From the IMG/VR virus record IMGVR_UViG_3300005077_000001, positions 64,001 through 128,000 of that record: a stretch of DNA of 64,000 nt; one strand, written 5' to 3'. This stretch comes from a virus (lineage: Duplodnaviria; Caudoviricetes). The notes beneath the pieces are model-generated. The model had not been told where the DNA came from, did not search any database, and saw only the letters and a list, made by a program, of their open reading frames with translations. Position numbers and translations under genes: made by a program. Positions 18,927 to 59,000 of the stretch are shown here, one piece after another (the first letter of the stretch is position 1; each line of letters starts with the position of its first letter).

Positions 18927-18936
18927 GGATATTAAA

Positions 18937-29690: not shown

Positions 29691-30060
29691 TACAATAGTT
29701 ACTAAAATATGGGCAACCTACTTTAGCCAATACTACAACGTTAAGCGTGCCCATAGCGTAGGAGAGGCTTTAATAATGGTTAAAGAAAAACTTCCAGATG
29801 CTGTTATTCTAGATTTAAGGTTAAATGGTCCAGAAGATTCTGGTTTAAGTGTGTATTCTTATATAAGGAATGTTTGCCAAAGCAGTATTCCTGTTATCTT
29901 TGTTACAGGATTGGATTCAGATACTTTATTATATAAAGAAGCAGATACTATAGCTGCTGTTGATTATGAAAAAGGGATGTTTACTAAATTATTTGTAAAA
30001 CCTATAAAATTATCAACATTGGAGCCAGTAATTGAAACAATGATGTCTGAGGCGGTATGA
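29662..30060 (+). CDS. Single-domain response regulator (CheY-like receiver)
   Basis: LLIVEND acidic pocket, VILD51LRL phospho-acceptor, FVTG, FVKP. Confidence 0.9.
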   Translation: MKDLLIVENDTIVTKIWATYFSQYYNVKRAHSVGEALIMVKEKLPDAVILDLRLNGPEDSGLSVYSYIRNVCQSSIPVIFVTGLDSDTLLYKEADTIAAVDYEKGMFTKLFVKPIKLSTLEPVIETMMSEAV

Positions 30061-31502
30061 GCATAAGTGTTATTGTATCTTTAATATTTTCTATTTGTCT
30101 TCAGTCTTTTACAATTTGGTATATTTTCAAACACTTCATTGGTATGCCCAGACACACGTGGTTTTTTATAATACTCCCATCTTTTTTTATGATTTCGTTA
30201 AGACTAACTGCTATCTATTTACATTTTAATAACTATGGTCCTTTTGTTGAAGATTTTGTAATATCCCTTTTTATTATAGGTATTTCTTCTTCTCTATTAT
30301 ATAGTTATACAAAAATTAATAAATTATTTAAATCTTTATCAGGGTATGAGAATAACTTTGATGATATGGTAGAAAAACGATTTAAGAAAGAATGGGAAGA
30401 GACATTCGATTCAATTCCTGATCTGATTACTGTTTTGGATACTAATTTTACAATTTTACGTGCAAATGAAGCTGTGCTGAAGTTCCTTGACTTGACTGAA
30501 GATGAAATAGTAGGAAAGCATTGTTATGAACTAATACACGGTACTGTAAAACCTCCTGCATTTTGTCCATTTCATATGCTACTATGTACAGGAACCTCTG
30601 TACCTGTGGAGGTTAAGTTGGGTAATACTATATTTCTAGTGAGTGTGCATCCTTTTTATGATAAAAATACACTAAAAGGGGTTATACATATAGCACGGGA
30701 TGTTACAAGTTTGAAAAAAACGGAAATTGAATTGGAGAAAAAAAAGGAGGAATTATATGCTCTAAATTTAGCGAAAACTCAAGATTTATTAGATTCAGCT
30801 AGAATGTTAAATGCTGGAGTAGCTCATGAATTACGTACTCCAATGCAAGCTATAATAAATGTAATAGAGTTATTACAATCTGAATTAGTACATTGCTATG
30901 TAGAAGAAGCTAAGAGTACTATGAAAGCTTTATTGGAAGATGCAGAGATTCAATTAACTTATTCTATTGGAGTTTTAAATTCGCTATCTGCTTACGCAAA
31001 ATCTGGAGTCATGGTCGGTGTTCATTGCATTGATGTTTTTGAAGAACTAGTTGGTATAATTAAAACTTTGAGATTTGTAGATCCATTCAAGGCTTTAGAC
31101 GACGATCAATTCCATATTCAAGAACCAAGTTTTTTTAGTTGTGCAATAAAAATAAATAAATCTGACTTTAGACAAATAATTGAAAATTTATGTAAAAACT
31201 CTATTGAAGCAATAAAAGGTGTAGAGCCTAAAATATCAATTAAAGTTACTAAAGAAATAGATTTAATTAACATACACATAATAGATAACGGAGTAGGAGT
31301 TCCTGATAAATATAAAGATGATATATTTAAACCTTATTTTTCAACTAAAATAGGGAAAACACAACAGAATCAGGGTTTAGGGTTGGCTATTGTAAAAAAC
31401 CTAGTGATAAAGAACGGTGGGAATATTACATTTAATAGTCATCCTGGATATACGGAATTTATAGTTACATTTCCGTGTGCAAAAGCGGAAATAGAAGAAT
31501 AA
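30057..31502 (+). CDS. Membrane sensor histidine kinase (TM-PAS-HisKA-HATPase)
   Basis: About three N-terminal TM helices; PAS WEETFDSIPD...GKHCYELIHG...CP...ARDVT; H-box VAHELRTP; N-box NLCKNSIEA; DNGVG, FSTK and GLGLAIV boxes. Confidence 0.92.
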   Translation: MSISVIVSLIFSICLQSFTIWYIFKHFIGMPRHTWFFIILPSFFMISLRLTAIYLHFNNYGPFVEDFVISLFIIGISSSLLYSYTKINKLFKSLSGYENNFDDMVEKRFKKEWEETFDSIPDLITVLDTNFTILRANEAVLKFLDLTEDEIVGKHCYELIHGTVKPPAFCPFHMLLCTGTSVPVEVKLGNTIFLVSVHPFYDKNTLKGVIHIARDVTSLKKTEIELEKKKEELYALNLAKTQDLLDSARMLNAGVAHELRTPMQAIINVIELLQSELVHCYVEEAKSTMKALLEDAEIQLTYSIGVLNSLSAYAKSGVMVGVHCIDVFEELVGIIKTLRFVDPFKALDDDQFHIQEPSFFSCAIKINKSDFRQIIENLCKNSIEAIKGVEPKISIKVTKEIDLINIHIIDNGVGVPDKYKDDIFKPYFSTKIGKTQQNQGLGLAIVKNLVIKNGGNITFNSHPGYTEFIVTFPCAKAEIEE

Positions 31503-34146: not shown

Positions 34147-35886
34147 ATGGCTAAACGAACTAGAATAATTTATGCTTCTCAAAGTGTTCGTTGTAATGGG
34201 CACCTTCTGTATCGTGTACAGACTTTAGGTTCCAACACCACTTTCACTTCTGAGAACTTGTTTGAATTAGGCCATTTAGACATCATCGACGTTGTTGATG
34301 ACGTACCTGCGGTTGCTGTTGCTATTGATACTAACGATTTTGGTAGTGTTGAGACAATGGCATCTCTTGCTGGTATGAATATGATGGTGATGTCTGGTGT
34401 AGTTAGTGCAAGTTCTGCTTATCTTAGAGCACCTGCTGCCTGCACCGGTTCTGGTACTACGTACTATCACGGTGTTGGAATTGATGACTTTGGGCTAAGC
34501 AATGGCGTAGCTATTTGGGCCCCTGTTCAGAAAGAAGGCAATCTAGGTACTCTAGATGATGAAATAGAAATGACTCTATTCATGAACAAAGTTTTCGTAA
34601 ACTCCATTACACTTACTTATAATGTTGGTGCTAATGCGACAGAAAACTATGCAGCTGAAACTGACAATAAAATGTGGCTTATGAACGGTGCTAAATTCAT
34701 CTCACAAGAGGAATGGGATATTACTGATCCTAGTAATAGCTATGCTCTAGCTCTTGGGCTAACAGCATTAAATCCAATTCCTACTCTGTCTGATTGTAAA
34801 TTAGCATTCCTGGCTTATACTGATGATGGCGTAGAAGGTGTTACAGTTAAAACATCAACCGAGCGTGATGGTACTGTATACCCAATCGCAGCCGGAACAG
34901 TATCTACTGCTGGAGAATTTAGATACAACGCAACTCTCCAGACTGTCATTCTGCCTAGTGACGCGGCTTCTCTATGGACTGGCGACGTAACTTTTAAAGT
35001 ACGTTATGCTGCTCCTGCTTATGCTGCTGTTGCTAATGCAGTAAGTGCAAATACAGCAACTAGAGTTTATGCTAAGTATTTTGAGCTAACAAGTGCAGAT
35101 ACTGAACCAGATCATCCATCAACTCACTATGCTGAGGATATCGGTGGTCTTCGTCAAGGTCAAGTTGAAGTATTTATTGTAGATCCAGACGTAGTAACTT
35201 CTGAGTCTGATTGGGAAAATATGTGGCGTGTTCAGACTGTAACTATTACAGCTACTCCTGCACGTACTCCATTGAATGAGCTTGGTCATATCAGACCTTA
35301 TACTCGTACAATGAACTTCCCAGTTGAAATTACTTCTAACGTTGCTACTACAGCTTCTGATATGGAAAACTTCGTAAAGTTCTGTGGTAAAACCTGGACT
35401 GACTTCGAAGATGGTGGTACTGGAGTAGATCTTTCTTTGGCTCATATTATGGCTAAGAAAAATCTTATTCTAGTTGTAAAAATTTACAGCCAGACCAATG
35501 AGGAAGCTGGTGGAAATAATAGAACTCGTAAGGCTCTTATTAGTACATTAGCGGGCAAAGAATTCTTTGATCCTAATAATGATAGTATTGGAGCTGGTAG
35601 CTGGTCTAATGGTAAGGGTTTCTACCCTGCTTATGATCAGGATGTTTCAGGTTATGTTGGGTCTTGTACTTCACCTCCTCGTGAAAGACCGTTGAAGTGC
35701 GTAATTGTGCCTGATCTAAAGATCACGGCTGAAAATTACCAGAACTCAATTGGTGGTGGTCGTGGTGGTGGTACCAATGCTACTCAGGAATTCAACTTCC
35801 GTTCAACCAATAAGCTGTTCGTTGTTAAAGGCGAAGTAGCTATTACGGATCTTGCTTGCCTTGAGAGAAACCCAATCAATCCATAA
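34147..35886 (+). CDS. Major tail (tube) protein
   Basis: 579 aa; own promoter motif, RBS GGAGGA and terminator; RVQTLGSNTTFTSENLFELG and RVQTVTITATPARTPLNELG internal duplication typical of tube proteins; precedes chaperones and tape measure. Confidence 0.7.
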   Translation: MAKRTRIIYASQSVRCNGHLLYRVQTLGSNTTFTSENLFELGHLDIIDVVDDVPAVAVAIDTNDFGSVETMASLAGMNMMVMSGVVSASSAYLRAPAACTGSGTTYYHGVGIDDFGLSNGVAIWAPVQKEGNLGTLDDEIEMTLFMNKVFVNSITLTYNVGANATENYAAETDNKMWLMNGAKFISQEEWDITDPSNSYALALGLTALNPIPTLSDCKLAFLAYTDDGVEGVTVKTSTERDGTVYPIAAGTVSTAGEFRYNATLQTVILPSDAASLWTGDVTFKVRYAAPAYAAVANAVSANTATRVYAKYFELTSADTEPDHPSTHYAEDIGGLRQGQVEVFIVDPDVVTSESDWENMWRVQTVTITATPARTPLNELGHIRPYTRTMNFPVEITSNVATTASDMENFVKFCGKTWTDFEDGGTGVDLSLAHIMAKKNLILVVKIYSQTNEEAGGNNRTRKALISTLAGKEFFDPNNDSIGAGSWSNGKGFYPAYDQDVSGYVGSCTSPPRERPLKCVIVPDLKITAENYQNSIGGGRGGGTNATQEFNFRSTNKLFVVKGEVAITDLACLERNPINP

Positions 35887-35906
35887 TTGAATTGATGGTA
35901 TGCGAT

Positions 35907-35938
35907 AAAGGAGTAGCCTTAGTGCTACTCCTTTTTTT
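35907..35938 (+). terminator. Intrinsic terminator after the major tail gene
   Basis: AAAGGAGTAGC-CTTAGT-GCTACTCCTTT followed by TTTT. Confidence 0.85.
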
Positions 35939-35974
35939 CACTTCTCATAAAAAGTAAAGGAGGTCGGAAGGGCA

Positions 35975-36265
35975 ATGGATAAGAAATCTTATCAAGAAAA
36001 CTCTCGCCGTAAATATAATTCATTTGTAGATAAAAGAAAAGATATTATGTTAGGCAAAATTCTTACGATTGTTGAAGTTTTAGTTACTAATAAACTACAA
36101 TGGGAAAAAACAAGGAAACATCTATTAGGGATTTGTAATGATTTTGTTAGAGAAAATCAATTTGAATTAGAAAAGAATTATGTTATGGAATATGTAGATT
36201 CTAAAGAAGATCTTATTGAAGTTACTCATTTAAACAAAAATGGAGGAGGGGACTCTAATGGCTAA
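35975..36265 (+). CDS. Small hypothetical protein
   Basis: 96 aa; AAGGAGG upstream. Confidence 0.6.
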   Translation: MDKKSYQENSRRKYNSFVDKRKDIMLGKILTIVEVLVTNKLQWEKTRKHLLGICNDFVRENQFELEKNYVMEYVDSKEDLIEVTHLNKNGGGDSNG

Positions 36266-36968
36266 TAAGGATTTAAAGGATGTATTTGAAAACGGCCGCT
36301 CGTTTCAAATGGAAGATTCTGGATTAATGTATTACATTATCCCACCTGATGCTGAATCTGCTGCTAAAGCTAAGTGGCACTACAGTAAAATGTATAGTAA
36401 AGCTTTTATGGATGGAGTAAGCACTGTTGCTGAAATGAGAGATGCTCTACTTAAAAGAGGGCTAATAGGGGAAGCTTTCGATAGCAAACTGCAAGAACTT
36501 ATAAATGATCGTGATATTATGGTAAGTGAATTAGAAAGTGTATCTGATATAGATGAACGTGAAGCATTGGCAATTAAAATTGCGGAAAAAAGAGATGAAA
36601 TCTATGCATGGAGCCAACGTGCTAGTGCTCCATTATCACAAACTGCTGAAAGTTTGGCAGAAGACAGCCAAACAGACTTTCTTACTACATGTATGGTAGT
36701 GGGAGAGGACGGTAAGAAGATATGGGCAGACTACGATTCATTTGTTAAAGAAAAAGATCAGATGCTAGCAATGAGAGCTAGATACGAATGCATAATGTTT
36801 CTACAAGGTTTTGAATCAGATTTTCTTGAGAATTTACCAGAAAATAAAATTCTACGAGAAGTAATGGAAGAGAGACAGAAAGAAGCAGAAGCAGAAGCAG
36901 AAGAAGATGTAGAAGTTGAAGAAGAAAAACCAAAGAAGAAGAAAAGTACTAAAAAGAAAAATGATTAA
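36258..36968 (+). CDS. Probable tail assembly chaperone
   Basis: Acidic helical protein between tail tube and tape measure; GGAGGAGGGG RBS before ATG 36258. Confidence 0.55.
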   Translation: MANKDLKDVFENGRSFQMEDSGLMYYIIPPDAESAAKAKWHYSKMYSKAFMDGVSTVAEMRDALLKRGLIGEAFDSKLQELINDRDIMVSELESVSDIDEREALAIKIAEKRDEIYAWSQRASAPLSQTAESLAEDSQTDFLTTCMVVGEDGKKIWADYDSFVKEKDQMLAMRARYECIMFLQGFESDFLENLPENKILREVMEERQKEAEAEAEEDVEVEEEKPKKKKSTKKKND

Positions 36969-36970
36969 TA

Positions 36971-38050
36971 ATGATAGATTTGAGTATAGATACTTTAGTA
37001 CAGAAAATTGAAGAAATTTCCAGTGGAGAATGTGTAAGGCACATAGAGGCAAATGACTCTTATGTGCTTTATACCTATCCTAATAAATATCAATTTAAGC
37101 TTGCCGATATAAAAGAAAAACAAACATATAAATTAGCTACAGATGATGGTTTTCCAACTATAGAACAGATGGAAAAACGATTAAGAGAAGGGGGTTTGTG
37201 GACTGAAACACACGAGATTAAATCAGAGGATTTACGAAGTAAGATAAAAGGATTACGAGTAGTTAAAGATGACCCATCCCTCACAAAAACAGAAAATAGA
37301 AAACATATTTTACAGCAATCAATTAATAAATATGAAAAAGAATTATGGGAATTAGAGTATATAAAAGATAGTAAACTAGACGAAACAGTGGAGCGGAAAT
37401 CTCGTCGTATTAGATACGATTATTTATGTTGGTTATGCGCGTTTGATCCATTTTCTAAAGATAAATTTTGGGATAAGTCCTTTGATGAATATCAAATAAT
37501 AGAAAATATATTAAAAACAGAGGTTTTAACTAACTTTATACAATTTATAGGTGGTCATGAACAAGAAGAAATTAGGTATATAGCTCGTAGCACTTATTGG
37601 AAAGTAAATTACCTAGTTTCACAAAAAAGCAATTCTCCTCTATTTAGTCGGTCTGTGTATGAAATGACCCCTGACCAGCTCAATTTATGTTATTGGAGTC
37701 AGTTCTATCAAAACATAAATGAGATGATGCCAGAAGACAGACCAGATGATGAAACAATAGATAACGATGAGGCATTGGATAAATGGCTAGAGGAGTATCA
37801 CAGGAATAAAAGCGAAGAACGTAAATCAGCAAGGCTTTCCTCATTTGGATCTAGTTCGGCAATGAACCAAAAAGAAGTTTTGGTATTTAGATCCAATCCA
37901 AATTACGAGAAAATTGAATATGATGAGCCACCTTCTACAGAAGGTAAATTATCAGACAGTGACACAAAAGAAAGTATGGACAAAAAAGGTATGCGTCTTA
38001 GGAGATTAATAAGACAGAAAAAAATGGAGAAAAACAAGAAAACTGATTAA
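36971..38050 (+). CDS. Probable second tail assembly chaperone
   Basis: 359 aa; stop overlaps the giant ORF start (TAATG). Confidence 0.5.
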   Translation: MIDLSIDTLVQKIEEISSGECVRHIEANDSYVLYTYPNKYQFKLADIKEKQTYKLATDDGFPTIEQMEKRLREGGLWTETHEIKSEDLRSKIKGLRVVKDDPSLTKTENRKHILQQSINKYEKELWELEYIKDSKLDETVERKSRRIRYDYLCWLCAFDPFSKDKFWDKSFDEYQIIENILKTEVLTNFIQFIGGHEQEEIRYIARSTYWKVNYLVSQKSNSPLFSRSVYEMTPDQLNLCYWSQFYQNINEMMPEDRPDDETIDNDEALDKWLEEYHRNKSEERKSARLSSFGSSSAMNQKEVLVFRSNPNYEKIEYDEPPSTEGKLSDSDTKESMDKKGMRLRRLIRQKKMEKNKKTD

Positions 38051-41000
38051 TGGCTGAAGATTATACGTTTAATATAAAAATCAATATAACTCCAGAGATA
38101 AATCAAAGCGAACTTGCCAAGTTGTCTTCTCTAGATAAACATCAAAAAGTTTCTACTACTGATATGATGGCTTTAAGACGTACTATTTCTGCTGATAAAC
38201 CGATTACTAAACAAACTGAAGATAAACTATTTGATCATATGTCCAAACTTGAACAGAGAATTGAGCAATTAAAGCAAACCAATGTACAATCCTATGCTCC
38301 TGTATCTAATATATCAATTCGGAATTCTATGGAATCCATAGAGAAAACAATAGATAAAGCTAATCGCTTAAATGAAAAGCTACTTAATTCACAAAAAGAA
38401 TTAGGTCAACAGTTCCATTCCTCTAAACAAATGTCAGAAGAGCTGCGAAGAAGCCTTGAACAGCAAAGACAAAAATTTGTAGACTACGTGAGATTAAATG
38501 AATCAATTACTAAACCCACTCAATTAACTACATTTGCTGGAGAAAGAATACAACTAAAACCAGAACGTCCTCTAAAACCAATGGTAGCTCCAGATATGTT
38601 TTCAAAAGAAATTGAAAAACAATTTCAAAATCTACTTACTACAGCTAAGCAAGATTTAGCCAAAGAAATATTAAAATTTAAATACGCTTTCAATGACAGG
38701 TTAGGAGATATTACTTCTTCTTTACAAGAGGTAGGGTATAGTTCTCATATGAAGGCATTGGATCAAGTAAATAAAGTAAAGGATTTACTAGATCAAGTTA
38801 CTAGTTCAGAAGATTTAAAAGTGGTCGTTGATAATTTTAAATCTAAATCTAAACAGATGCAAAAAGATATTGTTGATATGAGGTATATGATTGATAAAGC
38901 ATCTACTGATTTTGGTACAGAATTAGGTAAAGAGATAGATAATATAAGAAAATCTTTTCAGAATTTTTATAGGGATTTCGTATTTACATTTGGCAAACCT
39001 AACTTCTTTGAACCTGCTGGTCCTATGTTTAGGGATGTTGCTTCCCAATCTATGAGACGTGGAGAGCGTTCACCCATAGGGGGTAGATACGTTGGAGATC
39101 CTAGGATTAAGTTTGATCAGTATGGGGCGGCTCAATACAATATTACTGATGTTAAAGCTTTAGGTCAAACTTTATTGGATTTGTTAAAACCCAATTATTT
39201 AGCAAAAGCTTTTGATTTGAAAAATGTAGATAAAGCACTTCAGAATCAAATAAATGATTATTTCACTAAAAATAATATTTCTAAAAAACTAGAAACTTTA
39301 ATATCTTATAGTATTCCTGATTTAAAAAGTATACATCAGGATATAGTAGATACCATCTCCAAACACCTAGAAAAAACGATGGATAATGGTAAAATAAATA
39401 AGATGGTAGATAAATATATGCAAGATGTTTTATCTGCTACAGAAAAATCACTTAAAATACCTTCTATAGCTAAAAGTCCTAGGGGTGCTGGAATAATAAG
39501 AGATGTAGAACGTGGTGAATACCTCACTATGGGGCAGTATTTAAGTGTCCAACCTTCAATCAATAGGTTGTATGATCAATACATTAACCCAATGTTCAAG
39601 ATGCTGTCTCGTACAGGGATTGAACAATCTAAACTTCCACAAGACTTAAAAAATCTTAGAAAACTAGTAAAGGATTATTGGGCGAGATCTAAATCTTTTG
39701 AAGGAACTGAAGGGGTTGGGGTTGGTACAGAATTAGCTTCAGCCGAAATTATTGATAGGGTAAAGGGGTCTTTCAAGATGATGGAAGACTATTTGAAGAA
39801 AGAGAAAGGCTCAAAGTCTATAAGATATATTAATGAGATAGAGAAACTTCGTAATAATTTCATGGAAGAATATGACAAAGCATTAAGAGAGTCTATACGT
39901 ACTACGATGGAAAGAGTATTCAAAGAATCTTTGATTAGGGGAGATGTAAAACTTCCTTCAAATCTAGAAAAAAAATACAGGTCAGAACTACAACAATATA
40001 TAGGAAAGGGGGTTAGAACTTATTTATTACCAGATGATATTCAAAAAGTCATTAAAGATCATTCAAAAGAAATAGAGAAGAAAGTTAATGCCATTGGGAA
40101 TATTAATTTAGAAACTACTTTAAATAAGCTATCAAAAGAAGAGGAACGTATCTTTGGTAAAAATGATTATAGTGTTAGACCAAAACAAAGAGTAATGGAA
40201 GAATTTGGTAAGTATTACCCAACAGATGTATATAAACTGATGATGCAAGTAACGAGATCAATGCAAGGTCAATTAAATGAGTTACAAAAAATAAGGAATA
40301 GTTTATCAGCAGCAGGAAGTAAAGGTAATGACTCTTATTTTCGTGAATTATTAGAGCAACATTTTAGACGAGTATTTGATCCTGTAAAAGAACGTATTCC
40401 TGAAGAGCATGAAGCTATGCAGAAACACGAAGTATATGGTAGGTATCGTACTATTACTTTACAACCAAAACTTCCTAGCATTGCTGAAGGCGAATCTTCT
40501 TACGGAGTACCTGTCGATTTACAAGCAGAGCGTAGATTCATTGTTCAGAGAAATCTGGAAATGGAAGAGTTGTTTGAAAAAGAATATATAAGAGGTATTA
40601 AAGATTTAGAAAAAAGACTTGGTCCTACAATTAGAATGTTGTCTACCATTGGTCTTAATGAAGCAGCTGCAGCTGGTAAGAGGGTATTTGGTCAAGATTT
40701 TGGTAAAGAATTTTTAGAATCTTTTCTAAAAAATAGAAAAGTTCATCCTTTTTCTTCTTATGATCCAAGAGAAACGGAAGCTTTTGGACAATCTATTAAT
40801 CCATCAAGACCTACTGGTGCAGCATGGTTAAGTTTAGCGGGCCCAGAATTTAATGCTATTCGTTCTGCAAGATCACACCAGATGATTTCTCGTGGAGAGT
40901 GGGGCCCTTATGGTACTGGGCTTAATGTAGTAACAGCATTGAAAGACGTATCTCAAGGCTATGAAGATGTATTTGAAATTGGTAAAAGGTTAAAAGAAAT

Positions 41001-44000
41001 AGCTACTTTTAAATTTAAAAAAATGGTAGTTCCAAATCTGAAGGGTAATGAAGATGAATTAGTGAACAGTATTAAAAATTATTTAGAAACTGTTGGTTCT
41101 GATATATTTGGTAAACCAATTAAAATTAAAGAATTAGCTGATGAAGTCTTTGTTAAAGATATAGCCAAAAGATGGGCGAAGGGGAAAGAGGGGTCTATTG
41201 AAGAGAATGTGCTCACACTATTAGAATCTTTTGTGGGTCACGAGGCTAGGAAACTATCTACAGGCCAAGTTCTTAAAGGAGTAGGTGCTTCTATATTTAG
41301 CAAGTACGGTGATGATTTAGAACAATCAATAATCAATAAATTTGTTAAAGGAATGAAGCCGAGGATAAAATTTGGAGATGTTGGTATTTTAAAGGGAGTT
41401 CCTAAGTCGTTTGAAGAATTATTCACTGAGATTATCAATTCTTCTAGACTTAATTTAGATCCTGCCAAAATAGATAAGGCCAAAGAACTTATCAAAGGAA
41501 CTCAAAACTTACCAATGCTTTCTTCAAAACACTTATCACAGTTTAATGTTTATCCTGTTGAATACGGAACTGGTAAGATTATGGGAACCCAAGGTAGTTT
41601 ATCCTTAGAGCAAAGGAAAAAATACCTATTTGATATGCTAGGTATCCCAATGTCTGATATTAGTACAGCCAAATCTATTTCTAAGCAGATAGAACTACTT
41701 GGAAATGATATGCAAAAAGTAAGAGATTTATATAAATCTACAGTTGGTGGAGGCCTAACAAAGGATGTTCCAATTGATTTAAGAATAGCTGCTTCATCCA
41801 TTGGCAAAAAATCTCGTTTAATTGGTGGTAATGTTGCAGAAGTAATAGCTAATAATATAATTGGTAATATTCGTTCTGCTCCTTTACAAGGAGAAACCAT
41901 TGTAGATCAAATTATTCGTCAACCCTTGGCAAAAATTATTACTGATACAAAAGCAACAGGGGAAGATGCTCGTAAGCTAGCTTCTTTATATAAAGATGTT
42001 TTAGGTCTTCGTGGTAAATACGGGGAAGAGTTCTTATCAGAAAGTCAGGGTAGGGTTGAAAAGACCATGGCTGGTATGATGCATATGATGATCATGAAAG
42101 AACCTAAACAGTATATTCCTAAAGGAGCAGCAGAGATAGAAGCTGGTAGATCCAAATTAACTATAGATCCTCACGCTTGGGTAGGCTTAAAGAAATTATT
42201 CGATGAGGAAAATAGTGCATTATTAAAAGAAATAAATTTAAATTCTGTACCTGATGCTAGAACTGCTGGGGCTTTATTATCTTCGTTCAGGTCTTTTTCA
42301 AAAAAAAGAGAAGCAGAATTAATGGAAGAGCTATCAAAAAATAAGATTGGTTTGTTAAACCGAGAATCTCTATTAAACCCTAATTACACAAATTATGTTT
42401 CACCTTTAGAAAGAGGATCTTTAAGCGCTGATTTAGGAGGCACTATCTTTGATCCTATGCATTTACCAAAACCAATTCTTTTGGAAATGCCTAAACCTAA
42501 CGAAGAATTAAGAAAAAGAATAGAGAAAGATATAAAAAGGCGAATAGAAAATAGGGAACAGGCTCTTCCATTAAGAGACTATATCGAGATTCCTGAAATA
42601 TCTGGAAGACAAGTATTGGTAAATGAAACTGGAGAAGTTATGCCAACATCAACTTCTAGGTATATGTCTGAGCTAATAGAGTCTACTAGGAAATATCATC
42701 AATTGCAAGATGTGTCAAAAGATCCTAAAATTATGGACATACAGAGGAAAGCCCTAACTGATTTTATTAGTGATAGTTATAATCAGATTCACGCTGAACG
42801 TAATTTAGATATAAAGAAAAAAATGATTAAACATTTTGAAGATCAAGTTTTACCTGTTATTGGTTCTTTACCTATGCCCTTATATTCTTCTGAATCTAAT
42901 TTAATTTTAGGTAAAGAAGGACCAGAACTTCCAACTATATATTCTAGAGTTGGGGCGGATTCTAAAACTAAATTGGAAAAAGAAATATCGAAGGGTATCA
43001 CTATACAAGATGCATATAATAGATATATCACTAAAATTACAGAAGGAAGTGAAGCAAGTAGATTAAACTATATGGCTCGTTTCTTGAGAAATACAATTGC
43101 CAGCCCTGTAATCTACTCTAAATCTCCACAATTAATAGGTCAACAGGTTTCTAGGGAAATTTTACCAGAAGGAGATAAAGAATTTGTAACTAAAACACTG
43201 CTATCTGATAAAAATGTACAAAATTTAGTAACAAAATTTAGTGCACTTAAACCTGAGTATGATAAGAATAAACAACTGACTGGTTTGTATCCTCAAAATA
43301 TTATTGATGAGCAAGTTTTATTAGCTAGACGAAATGCTTATGATTTCTATCGTGAGTTAACAAATTCAATATTTGGTAAAAGTGGTGTTATTAGTGATAC
43401 TTTGCTTAAGAAGAAAGTGCCTGGACTATATTTGACTGCTCAATCAAGACCTTACGACCCTACTGATGCTATGAAATCAGGTGTTGAATTACTAAATAAA
43501 TATTCATCAGAAATAGAAAATTCTGATAAGCTAAAAGAAGATTTAAGGCAACAACTGGATGCTGTACAGAAATTTAAAAAGGAAAACCCTTTGGCTTGGA
43601 TTAAAAGAGATGAGGTCCGTATCGGAGAACGTGATTTACGGGAACTTCAAAAAGCAGGACAAGCCACACCAGAATTGCAAAAGCAAGTTAAAGATGTGTA
43701 TGCAATAATTCATAGACAACCTTCTACAGATGAGTTCAGTTTTAAATCTATGAAATTAAAAATAGATGATATGCAAAAGGATTTATCTGGAGTTGCAGTT
43801 GTTCCTGGATTACCTTTAGGCGACTATGACGCTATGAGAGCTATGGAAAATACCTATAAAGCACTTGAAGGAGTACGAAGTAAACAAACTAGCCAAGTAG
43901 AAGAACTTTATAAATTGGGAAAAACAGAAACTGATCCTGTGGTTAGGCGTCTCCGTAAAAGTATTGAAGAAATAGATAAAGCTGTAAGAGACTTAATACC

Positions 44001-47000
44001 TATATATCATGAGCAACAGCAGAATTTAGATTTTGATGGTGATATGATAGCTCTTCATGCTGCTACATTAAAGAATACTAATGATGAGTTGGAGAAAATT
44101 AATATAGAACAAACTCTCAGAACTGGGGATACAAGGAGATTCCTATATGAAGACTTCAGCAAAGTAATGGCAGAGAAATGGTCGCTAGGTAAAAAAGGAG
44201 ATAAACCGTCTGATGAGGAGTTAGCTGTATTTAAGAATTTTGCTCCGTCTTTATCCTCCCAATGGAATTCTATGGACGTAACTCAGCAATTTACCGATAA
44301 AGCTAAAAAGGACTTATTAAAATTTCATGGTACGGATGCTCCTACTGTGGCAGAAGATGCTTTGAAACACTTTGTTCATAAGATTGATATGGGCCAAGTT
44401 TACGAACAATTTAATAGGATTGGTTTATCTTATCGTGGATTAAGTGCAGAGGAAGCTGGACTTACTCCTAAAATGAGTGAAAATTATAATCTCCTATTAG
44501 CGGAATTTTTACGCTATGTAGTACAAAAGGCTATTGGAGGTAAACATGGATCAGAAGGAGCAGATTTAGCTCCTATGGTTCAAAAAGCGTTTTTCACAGG
44601 GAATTTGGATTTTCTGGCCGGTAAAGGAAAGAATGCTCTATTTGGAGAACAAGAAGAAGCCCTTACAAAGTATAGAATGAAGTATTTGAAACCGTTGTCA
44701 CTTGCTGAATTACAAAAAGAAGCAGAATCTTATGGTATTGATCCAGGAGTAAAAAATAGAGAGCAATTAATAAAAGAGATTGTTAAAAAAACATCTTTTA
44801 GATCTATGTTTGAGAACGTATTTGATACTATCAAAAGACTTACTTTAGCAAATATACGAGAATTATATGAAAAAGGAGCTATTGGAGACATATCATTATC
44901 TAAAAAAGGTAGATTAGGGACAGCAAAGTATCTGAGTGGCCAGTATAATAAATCTATAGATGAGCTATATGATACTTTGAAAGTTTCGTTTAAAGATGGT
45001 AACTTAAATATTACAATGGGTAATAAAGATATTACCCAAGATGTTATAAACCGTGTATCAAAGGATATTGGGGTAGAGTTATCACCAAAAGAGGCTGCTT
45101 TCAGATTAGCTGCTCATGGGGAAGGGTTATACAGCGCAATTGTAGGAGAACCTGGGAAAACGCAAAAACGTATATTAGATTACGGTCCTTCAACTTCCCA
45201 ACTATCAAAAGGATTACAGCCACTTTATGTTTTGAAAAGTTCTGGTGGTGCAGACTTAGCCACAAATAGATATCTAAAATATAAACCAGGGTTTACATCT
45301 GAATATATGCCTGGAGGTCCAGAAGCTGGATATGCTGAAATAGTAGATTCTATTTTAAGAAACAGAATGGGAGCAAATATCCCAATCGACGATGCGTTGG
45401 GTACTTTCAGCAAAATAGGAGGCTCCAAAAACTTTGTAAGTCCAGTTATTAAGATATATGATGAATTTAAAGATACCTATGATAAATTAATGTCAGTAAT
45501 GACAGATGATATCTATAAAATTGAAGGGTTAACAAAACAAACTAAATCTTTTAATAGAGAAATGGATGGATTTGCAGGTAATATGGCAAAAGCGGGGGTT
45601 AAAGCATTTTATAATAAAGAAGAGAACCAATTGTATTTATCTAGTCAAATTAAATCTGATTTTGATGAATCTCTCAATAAATATGCATTAGGTAAAACAG
45701 ATAAAGAAAAAGCCGAAGCCAGGGAATCATTAAGTAAGGCTGCACAAGAAATAAAAGAAGTTCTATCTTATGCTGCAGCACATAAATACATACAAGCAAG
45801 TAATTCAGATTTAGCTAATAGTATACGTGCTAACATAACTAAATATGCTGATCCAAAATCTAATCAATCACTGAAAGTGGATACTCTTATTGAACGATTG
45901 GTTTCTTTACATCAATATACTCCTATTATTGTTAAATGGTTAGAATTAATTGGTAAACCAGAATTAGTATCTCAACCAAAAATAACTATAGCTAGAGAAT
46001 TATCTAAGCATCCACAAATAAGAAAAGAAGCTTTAGAAGAAGAAGTAGCTTCCCTGTTAAGTGGAAGTGGAGGTTTTTCCACCGGTATATATCCGTTATT
46101 TAAATACAGAAAGAAGATAAACCCATTCAACGAGCTGCTATTTGGTTTAGCTAGTAAGCAGCCTGTTCAAATGCAAGCATTTTACCCATTGACCTCAGAA
46201 TCTTGGTCAAATAAAATGTCTGATATGCAATACAATCTTAATTCTGGAGAATGGTATGATATTTTTAAGGGTCACCCTTCTTTACGTGATATAGAATTAC
46301 CTTCTGGTATGACTTCTTACAAAGATGTGTTTTCTTTTTTACGGTCAATGAAAAAATACGGGGGATCAAAAGGAGCAACTCATTATTTAAATAGCATCAT
46401 AAAAGATCGTAACAGATCTTTATTAGAGAATATGGGAATTGGCATACCTGAAGATTGGGATAAAATGAGGCTATGGGCAACAGAACCTTTGGTACAAGGT
46501 GGAATAAGCGAGGCAGCTACTACTACTAGCTGGCCTTTTTTACCATACCCTAGTAATATAAAATTACCCATAGATACTCCCACTGGAAGAGCACGTCGCA
46601 GTATTGAATCCATATATAGTAAAGCATTTGATTTATCTAGAAAAGATTGGACAAATGTATTCAAAGATTTTGATAAACCACTAGCAGATGAAATTCAATC
46701 TTTACCAAAGGATACAAATGTGATAGAACATTTACAAGATACAGGGATGTATGGGCAAAATAAAGGATACACCAGATATATAAATATGATTTTCAAACGA
46801 AGAATGGAGCAGTTACTAAAATCATTAGGCGAAGAGGTTCCTGAATTTTATGACATGCGTTTTCAAAAAGCAAAACAAGAATTTTTAAAAGTATTGGAAA
46901 ATAGAGCAAAACAAGGGAAAGGTTTTGGTTGGTTATGGGGCCCATCCACTGGAGGAACTTGGGGCGGTGATAAGTTTGGCCCTGAAGAAGCATATGGGGA

Positions 47001-50000
47001 TAATCCTCCAGCAAACATAATTAAACGTTGGCAAATGCAGTCTTTTTCTCCTGCCGATTATCCTCACATTAAACCGATATTTGATTATCCTAAATTTTTA
47101 GAGACTGATGCTGCTCTTCAATATAAGAGTCATGGACATCAGATTAAGCTTAGTGCAGTTCCATTAAGATGGGGTAATATTGAGATTGGATATGGAACTA
47201 AAAATAAACCCTTAGACCCAGATAAAGCAAATGCCATTTATAAACCTTTCATTGAACAAGTTAATGAAGAATTAGTTCCTAAGCTAAAAGATAAGGTGAA
47301 AGAAATTCATCATAGGATTGATTTATTTGGAGAATGGGGCGGTAAAAAAGATAAGCTTTTGTGGTTTGATGCAAAAATTGGAAATAAACCATTATCAGTT
47401 GATCAATTTAAAGAACTAGCTTCAAGTCTTGGTTTAAAAACTCCTGATGAATTATACCGTGGGAAAGTAACTAAGCAAATAGTAGAAGATGTATTCAGAG
47501 AAAAACCTCCATTCACAGAGTTAGAGGAAGGTGTAGTTGCTAAGGCATTAGAACGTAAAAAAGGTGATTGGTATGACATGGCAAAGTTTAAAACTAAACC
47601 ATATCTAGTGAATGAAGAAAACAGATATCCTTGGTTTGATGAGAAGTCAGCTGGTGAAAATATTGAAAGAAAAATGAAGAAAGTTTTAGATTACCAGTTA
47701 AAAGCTTTTTCCCCATTAAGAAAACCCAAGGGGACTCAATTAGAAGAGGGTATGTATCCTGAGGAATGGCCCACAATTGAAGTATCCAAAAAGAGAGCAG
47801 AACAGTATTTAAAAGGGTTAGATGATAAGTTTTATCGGCCGGCTGAAGAAGCCAGTATGTATAAAAAGGGTACTGAATTTTTAGTAAAAGCGGCTGGTTT
47901 ATCTGATATACCTTCCGTTGTAAAAGATGCTGTTGTTTTATCTCAAGAAGAATTAAAGAATAGTATCTTTGGTAAAGATATGCCAAAATTACCATATGAC
48001 CCTGTGTTGGTATTGAATACAAGAAAACAAAAACCATTATATCCTGAAGCAGTACCTATTTCTAAAGAAGCAGGTTTTATGTTTCCAGAGACTTCAGAAC
48101 CTGGACAAGTAGGTAGATTCGTGCTCCATAAGCATGACGCATTAAGGGCAGGACCTCATCATGATTTAAGATTTGAAGTAGGAGGTCAATTACAATCTTT
48201 TGCTATACCACAACTAGTTCCAACTGATAAAGGCAAAATAAGATTAGCAATTGGTCCAACTGCTCACCATTCATTAGATTACTATGAAAAAGGAGATTAC
48301 GAAATTCCAAAAGGTTTTTATGGTGCTGGACGTATGCGTACAATGGATGTTGGTACAGCTGTATTAGAAAGCTTTAAACCAGATCATATTACTGTAAAAT
48401 TAACCGGGGTAAGAGGTTTAGCTGATGGTACATATTCACTAGTAAAATTTGATCCGAAAGGAGAGAAACCTAAACAACAGCAATGGTTATTTCAAAAAAT
48501 AAGAGATATAGAAGAGAGGGACCCTGTTAGATTTGCAGAAATATATACTGATAAAGTAGAAAAAGAACAGGATAAAACTTTAAATAAATTAGGGGATAAA
48601 TACAGAGACTTTCTTTCTCCTTTGACAAAATATGAAGAAAAAACATATTCTAATTATCCCACACTAGAGTTAGATTCTTATTTCAATGCTCCTGGACAAA
48701 TGAGGGGAAGGTATTCAAAAGGGAAAATACGAACAGGAAAACCTAGAAATATGGAAGAAATGAGGGCTCTCTTAGCTACTTATGACCACGAGGTTGGTCA
48801 TGCAGCTATAGAGAAATCCTATCCTGATATCGCTGAAAATATCATGTCTGGAAAAGCTGTATTTCCTGGTGTTCATATGGATAAGATTAGAGGCTATTTT
48901 GCAGCTAAATATGGGGGCGATAGAGGAGAAGGAGAAGATCCAGCAATTAAAGCTCTAGAAGAAGCAATTGCAGGTACCAGAGAAGAAGATCAAGATATTT
49001 TAAATGAACTTAGCAAATTACGGGATGAATCTTTTGGTAAAGCTGGAATGGTACCAATAGATCCTAATGCCCTCCAAGAACTAAAATATATCAGACGTTC
49101 TTTTAGTCCCACACAAAAACAAGATTTTGCTATTACAGTAGATTTAAATGATGATAAAGGAGCCCTCTCCTCTTTGAGTTCTTCCTTACAATCATTGGTC
49201 AGGCGATCAATATCAAAAGCTTATGGGCCATATGAGTTGCATGTAGATGCAGCATCTAGAGGTAATCCTGGGCCAGCGGGAGCTGGTGGTATAATAACAA
49301 GTCCTCGCGGAGGGGTTGTAACATCTTTTAGTAAACCAATCGGTGATATGACTAACAGCATGGCTGAGTATGTAGGATTAATTTTAGGATTACAAGAAGC
49401 GTATCAAAAAGGTATTCGTAGTTTAGAAGTTATTTCTGATTCTCAATCAATGGTTAATCAACTTCTAGGTACATATAAAACTAGAAGTCAAAATATTATT
49501 CCATTAAAAGCTAGGGTAGATCAAATTTCAAGTAAGTTTGGTAATGTGGATTTCCAATGGAAACCAAGAACCTTTCTTTCGGATGCAGATAAATTAGCTA
49601 ATGAGACTTTGGATTCTGCTCACAACAAAATTAATCCTGATGATGCAGTAAAGAGAGTAAAGAATTTAATAGATACTAAACAAATAAAGACTAATGATAC
49701 TCTTTTTAAAACTGCTTATTCAAAAGATAAGTACATGGATTACTTATCAAAAGGTTTTGCTGTGGGTATGCTAGCTAATGATGATATATATATGCCTTCA
49801 GGTATAGTAGAAAAGTTTAAAAAAGATTATTCTAAAAACACTCCTGATTTACAATCAGTATCAGAAGCTATACTTCGTACCTATTCTCATGAACGAACTC
49901 ATAAAGATATAAACACTGCTCCTTCTAATATCTACCGTAAATACAAATCTTTAGCAATTGACCCTCGATATTCAAATGCAATTGAATCCTTCATACATGA

Positions 50001-53000: not shown

Positions 53001-56000
53001 TGGTATGACCGCTGGAGAAGCTGTGATGAGGGCGCTATCTAATAGTATGGGCCCACGTGGTAAAGCGTTGATGTCTGTAGTAGGCTTGATTGGAGGGGGC
53101 ATTGCAGGAGGAGCATTCGGTGGTCGTATTGGGGGGATAGCTGAGAATTTGGTATTCAAACTTTTTGGTGAAAAACCTGATGACCACCAAAAAATACAAT
53201 CTTGGAAAGATCGTAAGAAGCAACTAGAAGATGAAAAGAATTCTTTAGTAGCAGTTACTCCAGATCGAAGCTATGCTCCAGTTTCTTCATTAGAAAGACC
53301 TTGGATAACTCCAGCAGAAATAAGAGGGTCTATTGCTCCCAATTTAGTAGGAAAACCACTAGATGCTTACATTAAATCTTTTAAGCAACTACAAGCAGAA
53401 GCATCAGAAAATATCCGAACTTCAGACGTTAATAAGTCTCAAAAGGCTTTAATAAAAACTACCTCAGATTTTTATTTAAACCGAGTGATAGAATCAAGAA
53501 ATGAACTAGAAGCCGCTGAAAATAACCAGTCTCCTAAATACGTTGTAGATCAGATTAAAAAGCAGATAGATGAATACATGATTAAATACGTATCTAATGT
53601 TATTAGTGCTTCTATGACTGGGGAAATCCACCCACTATCTGACCCATATAGGGTTAAAAAAACTGGAGGATTTGTTGGCGTAGATGATGCAAAAGCTGTG
53701 GCTTTAGGTAGGTCTCCTTCATTTGAAAAAGTTGTTAACCCGGAAAATTTCTATGTATCCGGTATGAGCAATTTATCTAAAAACATTATAGGTTCTATGA
53801 GAGATTTATCAGTATCCAACATTAGTCCTAACTCTGTATACAAAGAATTGATTAATACATTATTTACTACTTCTACAGATATCCCTAAAGATCTTTCAAA
53901 TATACATGCCTATTTAAAGATGTATACCTCTGAATTAGGGAAGAACCCTAACATTGATGTAAACAGATTGAGATATTGGAAGTCCTTAGAGGAATTATTT
54001 AGAACACCAGCAAAATCTATTAGACAGTATGGTAGATTTGATTTTCAAGGATTTGGGAGTATTGAATCTAATGCTCCAGTTGAAGAATTATCTCCTACTC
54101 AAAATCGTGGATCTAAATTTTGGAGAGGAATGTCTATATTTGGGGGTGCTTTGGTTGGGGCTAATGCTCTTGGGATGAATCCATTTGTGGCTCCTGTAGG
54201 AATGGTAGCGGGCGGTATATTTGGAAATTACCTATACAATAGACATCTTGCTAAAAAACAAAAACAAGAAGAAGAAGTAGTGGATGTTCAATCTAATGCT
54301 CCAGTTTCTGATACGAGATCTTATTTGAAATTAATATTAGGAGAATTAGCAGGAGCTAGTATAGGTGGCGTTCTAGCTGCTTTAGCTTCTGGAGGTAATC
54401 CTTTATTTACCAGTTTAGGTGCTGGAGTAGGTTTGTACGCTGGTAATAAGCTTACCAAGAAATATGTAATTCCACAAGAAATGGATATTCAATCAGCGGC
54501 TCCTATAAATATGGGCGGATTGCCTATCGATATGCAGTTTAAGCAAAATCAATTAATGCTTGATTACTACAAAAAAATGATAGCATCTAGTTCTTCTATT
54601 AAAGAAGGTACTATAATACCTATTGATCTAAAAGTTAAAGATGAGGCAGGTCAAGTACTTAGTAATATACGAGCAGATTTAAAGAAAACCTCAAATAGCG
54701 CAGAGGGGGTTATTACTACTTTTACAGATTTAAATAAAGTATTAGCTCAGAAAAATACGCTATGGGGTGCAATAGAACTAACTAGCCAATATGTTGCTGC
54801 TGGTGCTGGAGTAGGAGCAGTAATTAAAGAGTTTACAAATATGATTTCTACTATCACCAGTGTAGACGCAGCAATGTATGGTTTAGCACGCCTAATGGAC
54901 CCTGCAATATCAAATTTTGATAAATTAAGATCAGTTGCATTTGAAATGTCTAAACAATATGGAACTAGTATTGTTGAAGTCATTGAATCTATGAAAGTAT
55001 ATGGTCAGCAAGGTCTAAAGCAAGCTGAAATTATTGATATGACACGAGCTTCTATAATGATGGCAAATGTATCAGAAATGAAAGCTACAGAAGTAACTGA
55101 ATTGATGACTTCTGCCACTAAACAATTTGGAGATCAAGTAAGATCTACTATGGCATTTGTTGATGCATGGGTTAAAGTTGACACTGAGCATGCTATTACT
55201 TCACAACAATTAGGACAAGCATTATTACGAGTTGGTGCGGCGGCTAAAACTGCTGGTATGTCTTTTCATGAATTAAACGGTGTTGTTACTGCTATCGGAT
55301 CTGTAACTAGACAAACAGGTAGAGAGATAGGTACTTCGTTAAGATTCATTTTACGTAATATAGAAACTTCTGCAGTTAAAAATAAATTAAGAGATCTATT
55401 TCAAATTGATACCCTGTTGCCAAGTGGTGCTATAAAACCCGCATTTGCTCTGTTAGGGGAATTACAACAAAAATGGGGCACTATAACAAACGCTGAACAA
55501 ATGAATCTTGCTCAAATGATTGCTGGTGCAAGACACTACAATGCTTTTACTGTTTTAATGAATAATTTTCAAGAAGCTTTAGAAGCTACATCAGATTCTT
55601 TAAATTCAAAAGGTGATGCAGAAAAAAGAAATTACATTTTAATGCAAAGCTTAGAGAAAAAAATGCAGCAACTTCGTGGAGCAGCTAGTGAATTATATAC
55701 TGAATTCGGTAAATTAGCATTAGGACCAATGAAGTTCATGGCTGATTCAACAAAAGCTTTGATTGAGGGTTTTACTAGTTTACCTGATTCAATAAAAACA
55801 TCAGTTATGGCAATAGGTGCATTCACTGTTTATGCATCAAAAATAGAGAGAATTACTAGTATACTTGGAGGTATTGGTGAGGCAAGTGGTCTTTCTGGTA
55901 TTGTGAATACTTTTGGCCAATTCTCTATCAGTCCTATTTCTAGCATAATATATTCTTTTGATTCATTAAAAGGTGTTAATTCCTTAAGCCAAGTTAATAC

Positions 56001-59000
56001 AACTTTAGGAAAAATGCTTTTCCTAATAAAATCAGTAGCAGATAGCTTTCTTCATGCAGGAGCTTCTGCTTTTAGCTTCGTGCATACTGCTGCTAGATTA
56101 ACTTCCCTTTTTAGTATTGGGGCTTTCATTAGTAGCGGGTTTAATCCTACAGCTTTACTTCCTCTTCTTGTAACTAGAGGACCTGTACTCGGTTGGGGTG
56201 CTAGAAGGATGTCTAATCTGATGAATCAAGGTACTGAGGGGATACTAGAAAAAGTCTCTTCTCCTACTGGGTTATTAGGCATTGGCTTAACTTATGTCTT
56301 AACTAGGTTAGCAGGTTTAAATACTGGTATGCTAAGTAGAGAAGGGATGGGTATTGGTGATACTATTAAACAACTATTCATTGGACCAGAAGCTGAATTA
56401 AATAGATACAAAGAGCAAACTGTTCAAATAGGGGGAGCTTCTACTCGCATATCTTATCTAAGTGATGTGCTTAAATCTTATACTGCTCTCAAAGGTCAAT
56501 ACAAGTCTTTATCTGAAATAGGTGTAAAGTTAGGGACTCCTGAAGGCATTACTTCTGAGGCCGAGCGAACATTATCATCTTTTGGGGAAGAAACTGGATT
56601 TAAACCATACATGGTTCGCTTATATGAGTTTAATAAACTACAAGAGGAAGCTAAGAGAAAAGCTGGTTCTTTGATTCCTTCTTTAGTATCTGGATTTGAT
56701 TTGTTTGGTAATTCTATACTTCAAGTTAATAAAAATTTCCGTACTAACATAGAATCTATGGATGAGCTACTAAAGAAAATACAAGACTTTGAAAAGATAC
56801 ACCTTGCCGGATTACAAATAGATAAACTATTCCCCGAAGCCAGCTTTGGACAAACATTTAGAAATACTTTAAAAGGACTAGTTGGAACTTTACCTTTTAT
56901 GGGAGAAACTTGGGCTGAGAAAATATTCCCCGCTACACCATACCAAAAACAGCAATCTATTTTGAAAGATATATCACGTTATCAGGGTATGCAGAATGCT
57001 GCATTAGCGACTGGATTACCTGTGCCTCCTTTTATCACTGATACTTTAAAAAATCTTAATAATAAGTTAAAAATGGTTAATTCAGAATTAGATTCGGAAT
57101 TAGCAAAGATTAAAGATACTATTGCTGATCTTAATGTGAAGACTCCTAAAGAGGTACTATCCGTATTATCAGATACTAAATTCGGGAAATATTTAGAAGT
57201 ATATGGTGGAAGAAATATGGATGTGCTTAATGCGGTGGCTGGATATAGAGGTATTTCTACACGGGATCTACAGAAGCAGCTAGTTCAGGATACTACAAAG
57301 TATGAATATATGCATATTGATAAACAGCCTGGTATTGCAAGTATCTTATCATTTCCTGCTTTCTACGGATTTTCTAGAATTCTATCTAAAGTTGTAGAGC
57401 ATTTTACTTCTCTTTCACTAGCTTCTTCTAATTTAGGAAAAGCTCTATTGCTTGCAACATCTGCAGCCGCAAGTTACCATTTTTTTGGAACACCTGAACA
57501 TTATTCATTAATGAAAAGTAGACCAACAGTTGAAGATACTTTAACTCCAGCAATTAATAATGTTAAAAATTTATTACCGTATATTACAGCTATTGGAACA
57601 TACAAAGCATTAGGAGCTATAGGCGGAGGTGGAGGAACAATACCTCAAAGGATTGTGGGAGGATTAGCGAGATTAGGGGTATCCTACTATATGTATGGGG
57701 TGGGAGGGAGATTAGCAGAAGGGATACCAAATCTACCTACAGAATCAGATAGAGTAAGAGGTATTAAAAATGAAATAGCGCAACGTCAGGCTTGGGAATT
57801 AGCAATGGGTAAATTAGGTATTGCTAAAGAAGCCATATATGGGCCTCCAGGTACTTTAGGGGCTATGCTGCCATTAAATGTTATTGCTGCTCAAAACCCA
57901 CTAGGCAGGTATGCTGTTCGTACAACTGCTCTGAATGAAGAAGATAGAAAATTAGCTGAAAAAAGAATGTTTTCTGGTCCTGGTTGGAATGGTGGAGCCT
58001 ACGGGGTAGGTGCCGGATGGGTAGGCAAAGTATTAGAAGAAGAACTAAATAAGCTGTCAGGAGTATCTGAGGGTGATGTTGTCATGATGGCAGAACTCAC
58101 TGATGTGGCTAAGAAGAGAGAGAATATTGTAAATAATTTACTACCACTAATTTATAGACGTAATAAAGCAGGTGAAGTAGTTCCTACCGTACAAGCTCAA
58201 AGGGAAGGTGAAATTCAAGCTTCAGAAATACAAATAAAACCAGAAGATTTAAAATTTCTATATTCACGTGGCCCAGGAGCAGCAGTTGATATGCGTACGG
58301 CATATGATCAGTTGAGGCGTACCTTAATTGGTGGTGCTGGTGCTGGGAAATACTGGACTCTAAGTGGAGCAGAGAAATTACAAATGGGGGTAGATTTTAT
58401 TTGGCAAGTACATGGATATGACAAGGCTATCACAAATCTATCAAAAACTTCATTAGTTATACATGAAATAGAAAAACAATTACAGGCTTTTTCTAAAGAA
58501 CAAATAGAAACAGCTCGGGCTCAAAACGATTTAAACAAAGTAATGGACGTAATTTTTGAGCATCGCAAATTGACATTCTTAGTTAGAATGAACCAAGAAT
58601 GGGAGAACTTAAAGAACACTATTGGTGAAATAGATTTTAAACGTCAAATGAGCGATGTTGATGAGTTTGCTACTATGCTAGAAAAAAGAGCTGCTATTGG
58701 ATTAAAAAGCATTTCGGCTGGCTTACCTCCTCAGGTTCCAATGGTAGCAAGTTGGAGTCAACTATCTCCAGAAGAACAAAAGTCTGTTCTAAGTCCAGAG
58801 TATACAGGCACAGCAAAATTAGCATGGGAAGTACAAAAATATCAAACTGATACAGCAGCAAAACTAAGAGCTACTCTAAGAACTGAACAAACAGGGGTTG
58901 CTTTATATGAGCAATTGAAAGAGGATTTAGGGCCTAATCTGAATGTGGCATTAAGTGGTAGAACTAGAAGAGCCCTCCAAAGTGATTTTGGTAGTAAAGT

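Follow-up and report, generated by a model that had tools for sequence, protein, structure and literature searches.

A polymerase-like module with a predicted clamp inside a giant phage tape measure protein

The protein considered here is encoded by the genome of an uncultured tailed phage in the IMG/VR collection (record IMGVR_UViG_3300005077_000001; 256,335 bp, rated 97% complete), of which we analysed bases 64001-128000, a stretch of 64,000 nucleotides referred to below as the window. A look-up of sequencing runs listed none. A single stop-free frame of 12,315 residues at genome positions 102050-138997 takes up 14% of this genome, and its product is, to our knowledge, among the longest predicted phage proteins. 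We find that it is a tail tape measure protein that carries, in its N-terminal part, a module resembling RNA polymerase. As judged from sequence and from predicted structure, the beta-prime-like half of this module, a predicted clamp followed by a barrel bearing the DFDGD loop, is of the cellular, multisubunit type. By analogy with gp96 of phage P23-45, it is reasonably likely that residues ~790-2300 as a whole make up a single-chain, two-barrel virion RNA polymerase that would be ejected with the tape measure and transcribe the early genes. The relevant features of the protein are the following, in window positions.

38050-64000 (+): tail tape measure protein, the first 8,650 codons of one open frame that continues 10,997 nucleotides past the window end
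40417-44961 (+): RNA-polymerase-like module, residues ~790-2304, its extent conserved with distant relatives (phmmer domain ranges, alignments)
40903-42105 (+): candidate beta-like double-psi beta-barrel (DPBB-B), residues 952-1352, with a helical insertion of ~165 residues, placed by invariant residues and hhalign
40963-40968 (+): invariant E972-D973, paired with E813-D814 of GYNFEDS in beta
41248-41283 (+): invariant R1067-K1068...K1076-G1077-V1078, paired at equal spacing with K1065...K1073-G-V of beta
42298-43419 (+): clamp-like domain, residues 1417-1790, which includes EIPEISGRQVLV, from fold matches and a predicted local distance difference test score (pLDDT) of 75-94
43420-44142 (+): beta-prime-like active-site barrel (DPBB-A), residues 1791-2031, from hhalign and fold alignment to beta-prime ~498
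44029-44043 (+): metal-binding loop D1994-F-D1996-G-D1998, from conservation, hhalign and a shuffle control
47125-47589 (+): RNA ligase domain, residues 3026-3180 (PF09414, E 8.2e-08)
48127-48444 (+): LigD 3'-phosphoesterase domain, residues 3360-3465 (PF13298, E 1.8e-14)
49234-49605 (+): RNase H domain, residues 3729-3852 (PF13456, E 1.1e-21; phrog_531)
54766-56001 (+): tape measure core, residues ~5573-5984 (PF10145, E 8.5e-27; phrog_4211, E 1.1e-76)

The tape measure identity of the chain is given by the Pfam family PF10145, which covers residues 5630-5826, and by the 16 tape measure PHROGs that match at residues ~5530-6360 (best E 1.1e-76). As these matches lie in the same chain, the polymerase-like stretch is an internal, N-terminal part of the tape measure protein, and the fusion of the module to the tape measure core in one polypeptide is well supported. 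The RNase H domain is also matched by PF00075 (E 2.8e-05, slightly below the curated cut-off). Residues 1-2400 gave no above-threshold match in Pfam or PHROG.

The original prediction had read this region as a fused beta/beta-prime polymerase on the basis of eight short strings aligned by hand to E. coli motifs. All eight are present at the residues given for them in the frame that starts at window position 38050. The beta-type strings are GYEDVF (970-975), ARKLSTGQVLKG (1066-1077), PIDLRIAA (1241-1248) and GMMHMMIM (1342-1349), and the beta-prime-type strings are EIPEISGRQVLV (1513-1524), GKSGVISDTLLKKKV (1776-1790), HRQPSTD (1888-1894) and NLDFDGD (1992-1998).

The sequence evidence is strongest for the beta-prime-like half. 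DPBB-A directly follows the GKSG block (residues 1776-1790) and holds both HRQPSTD and a helical-hairpin insertion of ~70 residues, which sets it apart from beta-prime. The metal-binding loop reads D[FY]DGD in 28 of the 28 family members that cover this position, and the leucine before it and the histidine five residues after it are also invariant in these sequences. In fact, the 256-kb genome contains a single D[FY]DGD within a long frame, with a looser pattern adding only one DYDGD in a frame of 207 residues. The order DFDGD[QM]-hydrophobic-x-hydrophobic-H found here resembles NADFDGDQMAVH of beta-prime. The family PF00623 (RNA_pol_Rpb1_2) matches the DFDGD block over model positions 137-163 only (16.8 bits, E 0.0086; 13.4 bits in the six-frame search of the genome), and the same sub-threshold match recurs at the DFDGD block in 10 of the 18 members of the family; apart from it, no Pfam family was found in more than two. 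In HMMER, a profile of the DFDGD block scores residues 457-479 of E. coli beta-prime at 8.6 bits, against 4.1 for the best of 2000 shuffles. When the six-frame E. coli chromosome was searched with the DFDGD-region profile, rpoC ranked first, albeit with a weak E of 0.35. Finally, hhalign against the beta-prime profile gave four colinear alignments, all within beta-prime 242-480.

Residues 1512-1578 with beta-prime 242-308: the clamp match, containing EIPEISGRQVLV (P 0.41)
Residues 1767-1790 with beta-prime 324-347: the GKSG block on GKQG (P 0.24; 0.0056 against the single sequence)
Residues 1847-1909 with beta-prime 359-446: HRQPSTD on NRAPTLH (P 0.0049)
Residues 1994-2013 with beta-prime 460-479: the DFDGD block (P 0.002; 0.00084 for the alignment to 455-481)

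On this sequence evidence, the likeness of the motifs to those of beta-prime is beyond chance.

Structure prediction leads to the same half of the enzyme. A first AlphaFold model, built with 18 sequences, had a mean pLDDT of 55.7 and was confident only at residues ~1400-1860, a part that matched the clamp regions of polymerases with Z scores of 5.7-8.1. A second model, covering residues 952-2151 and built with 33 sequences, reached a mean pLDDT of 66.1 and was confident at ~1391-1991; the DFDGD loop itself stands at only ~55-69. In a search of 48,161 chains made independently of Foldseek with this second model, RNA polymerase largest subunits took 11 of the best 50 rows, all aligned with model residues 466-1080, and the archaeal clamp 3qqc_A gave a Z score of 8.8 with a root-mean-square deviation of 3.0 over 134 residues. 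Foldseek returned no row at E <= 0.001 for either model; with the second, ~20 of its top 50 rows were beta-prime-type chains, none of them at that threshold. Among the best 50 of the 874 Foldseek candidates that were realigned, 46 are RNA polymerase largest subunits, with Z scores of 8.0-9.7 over 206-281 residues, and they comprise bacterial, archaeal, Pol I, Pol II and Pol III enzymes as well as the split enzymes of AR9 and PhiKZ. Residues 23-498 of E. coli beta-prime align with model residues 466-1082, i.e., residues 1417-2033 of the protein, and this alignment runs through the DFDGD loop. Helical-bundle folds that matched model residues 850-1040 were taken as matches to the helical insertion and not as relatives.

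Because the fold matches are uniform and colinear and agree with the sequence evidence, homology of residues 1417-2033 to the clamp plus active-site half of beta-prime is well supported, at the level of sequence and predicted structure. Thus the two claims made earlier for this half, a beta-prime-like module with an intact metal-binding loop and a retained similarity to the clamp region, are borne out, the former by invariance, hhalign, shuffles and fold, and the latter by fold. Superposition on the bacterial enzyme, proposed as part of a structural check, succeeds for this half; the beta part of the second model is of low confidence.

For the beta-like half, the evidence is mainly one of invariant residues. 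E972, D973, R1067, K1068, K1076, G1077, V1078, K1253 and R1256 are invariant in 24 aligned relatives, and the distant relatives are closer to beta than this protein is, with the sequences TFEDQIxISG, FGRKxTTRYGSKGV and PIDxRISSxGxxKRGLQxE. The best two hhalign alignments to the beta profile are the E-D and K...KGV pairings, which are colinear (P 0.024 and 0.097). Searching the whole E. coli chromosome with the beta-like family profile found nothing, and PF00562 (RNA_pol_Rpb2_6) had no match at E <= 1 in the whole phage genome, whereas 14 of 14 control genomes were matched. A match of residues 1115-1128 to beta 1317-1330 was set aside as out of order. As for the beta motifs of the original prediction, the E-D and K...KGV residues hold up as invariant and as the top hhalign pairs, although the likeness to beta is not significant on its own; the pairing of GMMHMMIM with GYMYMLKL finds no support, as the distant relatives read KFLQIIEEP there and the string is therefore not conserved. 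The similarity of residues 952-1352 to beta is suggestive, and a second, beta-like double-psi barrel in the same chain is a plausible candidate on these sequence grounds. The idea that both barrels lie in one chain is accordingly sustained on the beta-prime-like side and left, for the second barrel, at low AlphaFold confidence and a suggestive likeness.

The original prediction had named crAss gp66 and YonO-type enzymes as the nearest analogues. However, since the polymerase lies inside a tape measure protein, the closest known system is gp96 of P23-45 instead, a 5,002-residue tape measure protein whose N-terminal part is a two-barrel polymerase with DFDGD (PMC10770324). The gp96 polymerase occurs in virions and shows activity in vitro; the genes it transcribes are pre-early ones with AT-rich promoters, and it has been proposed to act at the pore formed by the tape measure during DNA entry (PMC10770324). 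It is flat and has no clamp, a flatness that its authors proposed to permit passage through the tail (PMC10770324). The two proteins are alike in having a two-barrel-type polymerase with DFDGD that is N-terminal to the tape measure core in the same polypeptide, HExxH motifs and hydrophobic stretches further along the chain, an AT-rich motif cluster in the presumed early region, and a likely role as a tail-delivered polymerase. By eye, the HExxH motifs of the present chain occur, e.g., near residues 3570 and 4000 and within the last 3,665 residues, and hydrophobic, glycine-rich stretches lie near residues 4300-4400 and 5350-5450.

In contrast to these shared traits, no sequence similarity between the two was detectable: the hhalign alignment of the family to gp96 1-1200 had a probability of 0.3%, and tblastn gave nothing. 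Unlike gp96, the present module has a predicted clamp, begins near residue 790 instead of at residue 1, and sits in a chain 2.5 times longer that also carries RNA ligase, LigD phosphoesterase and RNase H domains; moreover, a search of this genome brought up no second polymerase resembling gp64. The 12,315-residue protein would thus work like gp96 while lying outside its sequence family. In phage N4, the giant virion protein gp50 is likewise ejected with the DNA and transcribes early genes, but it is a T7-like single-subunit enzyme of unrelated fold.

In the mechanism that we propose, the protein would be built into the tail and, on infection, would be ejected into the cell envelope and cytoplasm before the DNA, so that its polymerase part could transcribe the first phage genes during genome entry, independently of the host polymerase. 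In this picture we infer the second barrel and catalysis, the use of DNA as template, packaging into the virion and ejection from it, and the choice of promoters. The gp96 mechanism fits this genome because searches for a further polymerase or a sigma gene were negative (PF00562 and PF04542 had no match, and D[FY]DGD occurs in no other long frame) and because it contains a cluster of AT-rich motifs. PF00940 also had no match in the genome, which is uninformative since the control genomes were equally silent. The motif, TATATTTAATGnnnTATAGnAT, is 22 nucleotides long and, at up to 4 mismatches, occurs in 13 copies on the plus strand at genome positions 9803-20250, with one further copy on the minus strand at 48899; shuffled sequence yields 0-4 matches anywhere. 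Most copies directly follow a short GC-rich stem and T-run of the gcggtttt type, and together they look like a row of small promoter-terminator cassettes. The cluster resembles the AT-rich pre-early promoters of P23-45 (PMC10770324). Because it lies outside the window, may serve the host polymerase and is absent from a relative, we regard it as context, not as proof.

Several results weigh against the reading as a tail-delivered virion polymerase. No sequence search of the module passes any curated threshold: phmmer with residues 700-2400 matched nothing among the PDB sequences, hmmsearch with the family profile found only chance-level matches there, tblastn against 50,697 deposited phage records found no match for the module, and the PF00623 match lies below its curated cut-off of 25.3 bits. 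The beta-like profile scores E. coli beta no better than shuffles in HMMER. Residues 952-1390 were left unfolded by AlphaFold in both runs, with pLDDT mostly <50, and the region around GYEDVF is predicted to be helical. Fold Z scores of 8-10 are only middling, and hhalign of the 610 residues after DFDGD with the full-length beta-prime profile gave nothing that resembles a bridge helix or trigger loop. In addition, TATATTTAATGnnnTATAGnAT is absent from the 545-kb genome of a relative and might just as well be used by the host polymerase. The lumen of the tail tube should not accommodate a folded enzyme that bears a clamp. An ESM Atlas feature search with both halves of the module gave no usable match.

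An active two-barrel polymerase might also have a different job, such as laying down RNA primers or patches on the incoming genome, to be processed by the RNase H, ligase and LigD phosphoesterase, or copying RNA like QDE-1. Those three enzyme domains do follow in the same chain within ~1,900 residues, and RNA-dependent as well as DNA-synthesising members occur among the two-barrel enzymes (PMC10770324; PMC9508822). However, the fold matches are to clamp-bearing, transcribing polymerases, the sole characterised tape measure fusion transcribes pre-early genes (PMC10770324), and the genome shows no other polymerase for its early genes. We therefore consider such a job unlikely.

It is also conceivable that the polymerase has decayed and that the module, devoid of catalysis, persists only as bulk or as a structural element of the tape measure. 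This would account for a second barrel, bridge helix and trigger loop that are not detectable, and for the very large overall divergence from beta and beta-prime. Against it, the catalytic motifs D[FY]DGD, E972/D973 and R-K...K-G-V remain invariant even though the relatives are only 17-25% identical. As the three aspartates, the E-D pair and the two lysines are maintained at this level of identity, the pattern points to selection on catalysis, and decay appears distinctly unlikely.

A third alternative accepts the beta-prime-like part as real and supposes that its partner is a separate, unrecognised beta-like protein, with residues 950-1400 being something else. Although that segment has neither fold nor significant sequence support for a barrel, its best two alignments to the beta profile fall on the expected E-D and K...KGV residues in the right order, these residues are invariant, and PF00562 is matched nowhere in the genome; this arrangement is very improbable.

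The relatives of the protein bear on whether the fusion is genuine. A HMMER scan of 1.8 billion representative proteins yielded only 17 relatives. A search seeded with one distant relative, P0008, gave 16 proteins, 9 of which carry PF10145; three proteins of this set bear a TP901-family tape measure annotation, and the length of six of the nine PF10145 carriers is 6,555-6,987 residues. The 545,322-bp contig IMGVR_UViG_3300037484_000435, from a megaphage relative, holds a colinear frame of 14,712 residues with the polymerase-like, tape measure and N-terminal parts; its identity to the present protein is 48% over the polymerase stretch and 41% over the tape measure stretch. The genes that precede the giant gene are conserved as well.

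34147-38050 (+): four upstream genes of 579, 96, 242 and 359 residues, in the same sizes and order before the giant gene on the P0008 contig

Two of these four, when compared with the P0008 contig, are 35% (E 2e-60) and 41% (E 4e-107) identical to their counterparts. Since relatives share both the fusion and the syntenic upstream genes, the fusion is a conserved feature of the lineage and not an accident of assembly. It is thus scarcely credible that the motifs arose by chance or that misassembly merged separate genes into one frame, even if the record is a single metagenomic contig and short motifs do recur by chance over many scanned windows, as 24-28 relatives from independent metagenomes retain the motifs, fold matches exist, and an independent contig carries the colinear frame.

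How the module relates to other polymerases deserves comment. Its clamp plus active-site barrel superposes on beta-prime, A-prime and Rpb1 chains, but it differs from the multisubunit polymerases in that a single chain, that of a structural tail protein, contains the beta-like part as well as the beta-prime-like one. With phi14:2 gp66, SPbeta YonO and QDE-1, it shares the expectation that one chain holds both barrels, and gp66, too, is carried in the virion and ejected into the host. However, tblastn found no gp66 or YonO match in the phage collection, which is presumed to include such phages, and neither these two nor QDE-1 appear in the best 50 fold rows, which are all of multisubunit type, their chains possibly lying outside the 874 aligned. 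The module looks closer to the multisubunit-type clade than to gp66, YonO or QDE-1, an impression drawn from its matches to multisubunit enzymes and not from a direct comparison with those three. The original prediction had placed it as an intermediate between cellular-type and minimal single-chain enzymes; the evidence is just as compatible with a derivative of the multisubunit-type clade that arose by fusion.

Tail-delivered polymerases have so far come from one small group of Thermus phages and are clamp-less and flat. We suggest, tentatively, that in the present family a tape measure protein may have captured an RNA polymerase for a second time, independently of gp96, and that this enzyme is of the multisubunit type, has kept its clamp and resides in polyproteins of 6,500-14,700 residues from jumbo and mega phages that also carry RNA ligase, phosphoesterase and RNase H domains. 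If so, the tape measure/polymerase fusion would be a recurrent strategy and not a one-off, and a clamp-bearing family would test the idea that flatness permits tail passage. Such a polymerase would then have to cross the tail tube in an unfolded state and regain its fold inside the host. The phage would inject a ready-made transcription kit together with one for RNA or end repair, and with the module a compact beta/beta-prime-like enzyme would be at hand on which to study the reduction or fusion of multisubunit polymerases.

Some further observations concern the relatives and the rest of the chain. In the distant relatives P0030, P0031 and P0032, the same giant protein contains PF00929 (RNase T/DEDD exonuclease), so the enzyme cargo differs between lineages. 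The P0008 protein (L093:21919-32015, on a 126-kb contig) has 4,004 residues and no tape measure domain on record, while its longest relatives have 6,500-7,000 residues, so that it is possibly truncated. Genes for a DEAD helicase, AAA_22 and DpdG form a block on the minus strand that overlaps the end of this frame, and a defence-type island may have been inserted there. In the last third of the 12,315-residue chain, where a Pfam search was empty at E <= 0.1, we noted by eye a GGGVRDILRGETPNDYD motif typical of CCA-adding and poly(A) polymerase heads, and a kinase-like GxGxxG...VAVK...HLNN...IDLG pattern.

Among the neighbouring genes, the 579-residue protein (window 34147-35886, plus strand), just upstream of chaperone-sized genes, is the one 41% identical to its P0008-side counterpart; it matched nothing in Pfam or PHROG and, judging by its position, may be a tail tube or sheath protein. 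A sensor histidine kinase with PAS, HisKA and HATPase_c (E 1.9e-18) domains is encoded inside the structural gene region (window 30057-31502, plus strand). Three paralogous genes for endonucleases (phrog_4645; the N-terminal part is D5-like) lie at window 1339-2448, 25430-26617 and 27293-28300, all on the plus strand, and an RRXRR-HNH endonuclease is found 3' of the window at L002:13707-14930 (L002:10997 being genome position 138997). Scattered as they are among structural genes, these endonucleases are probably homing endonucleases.

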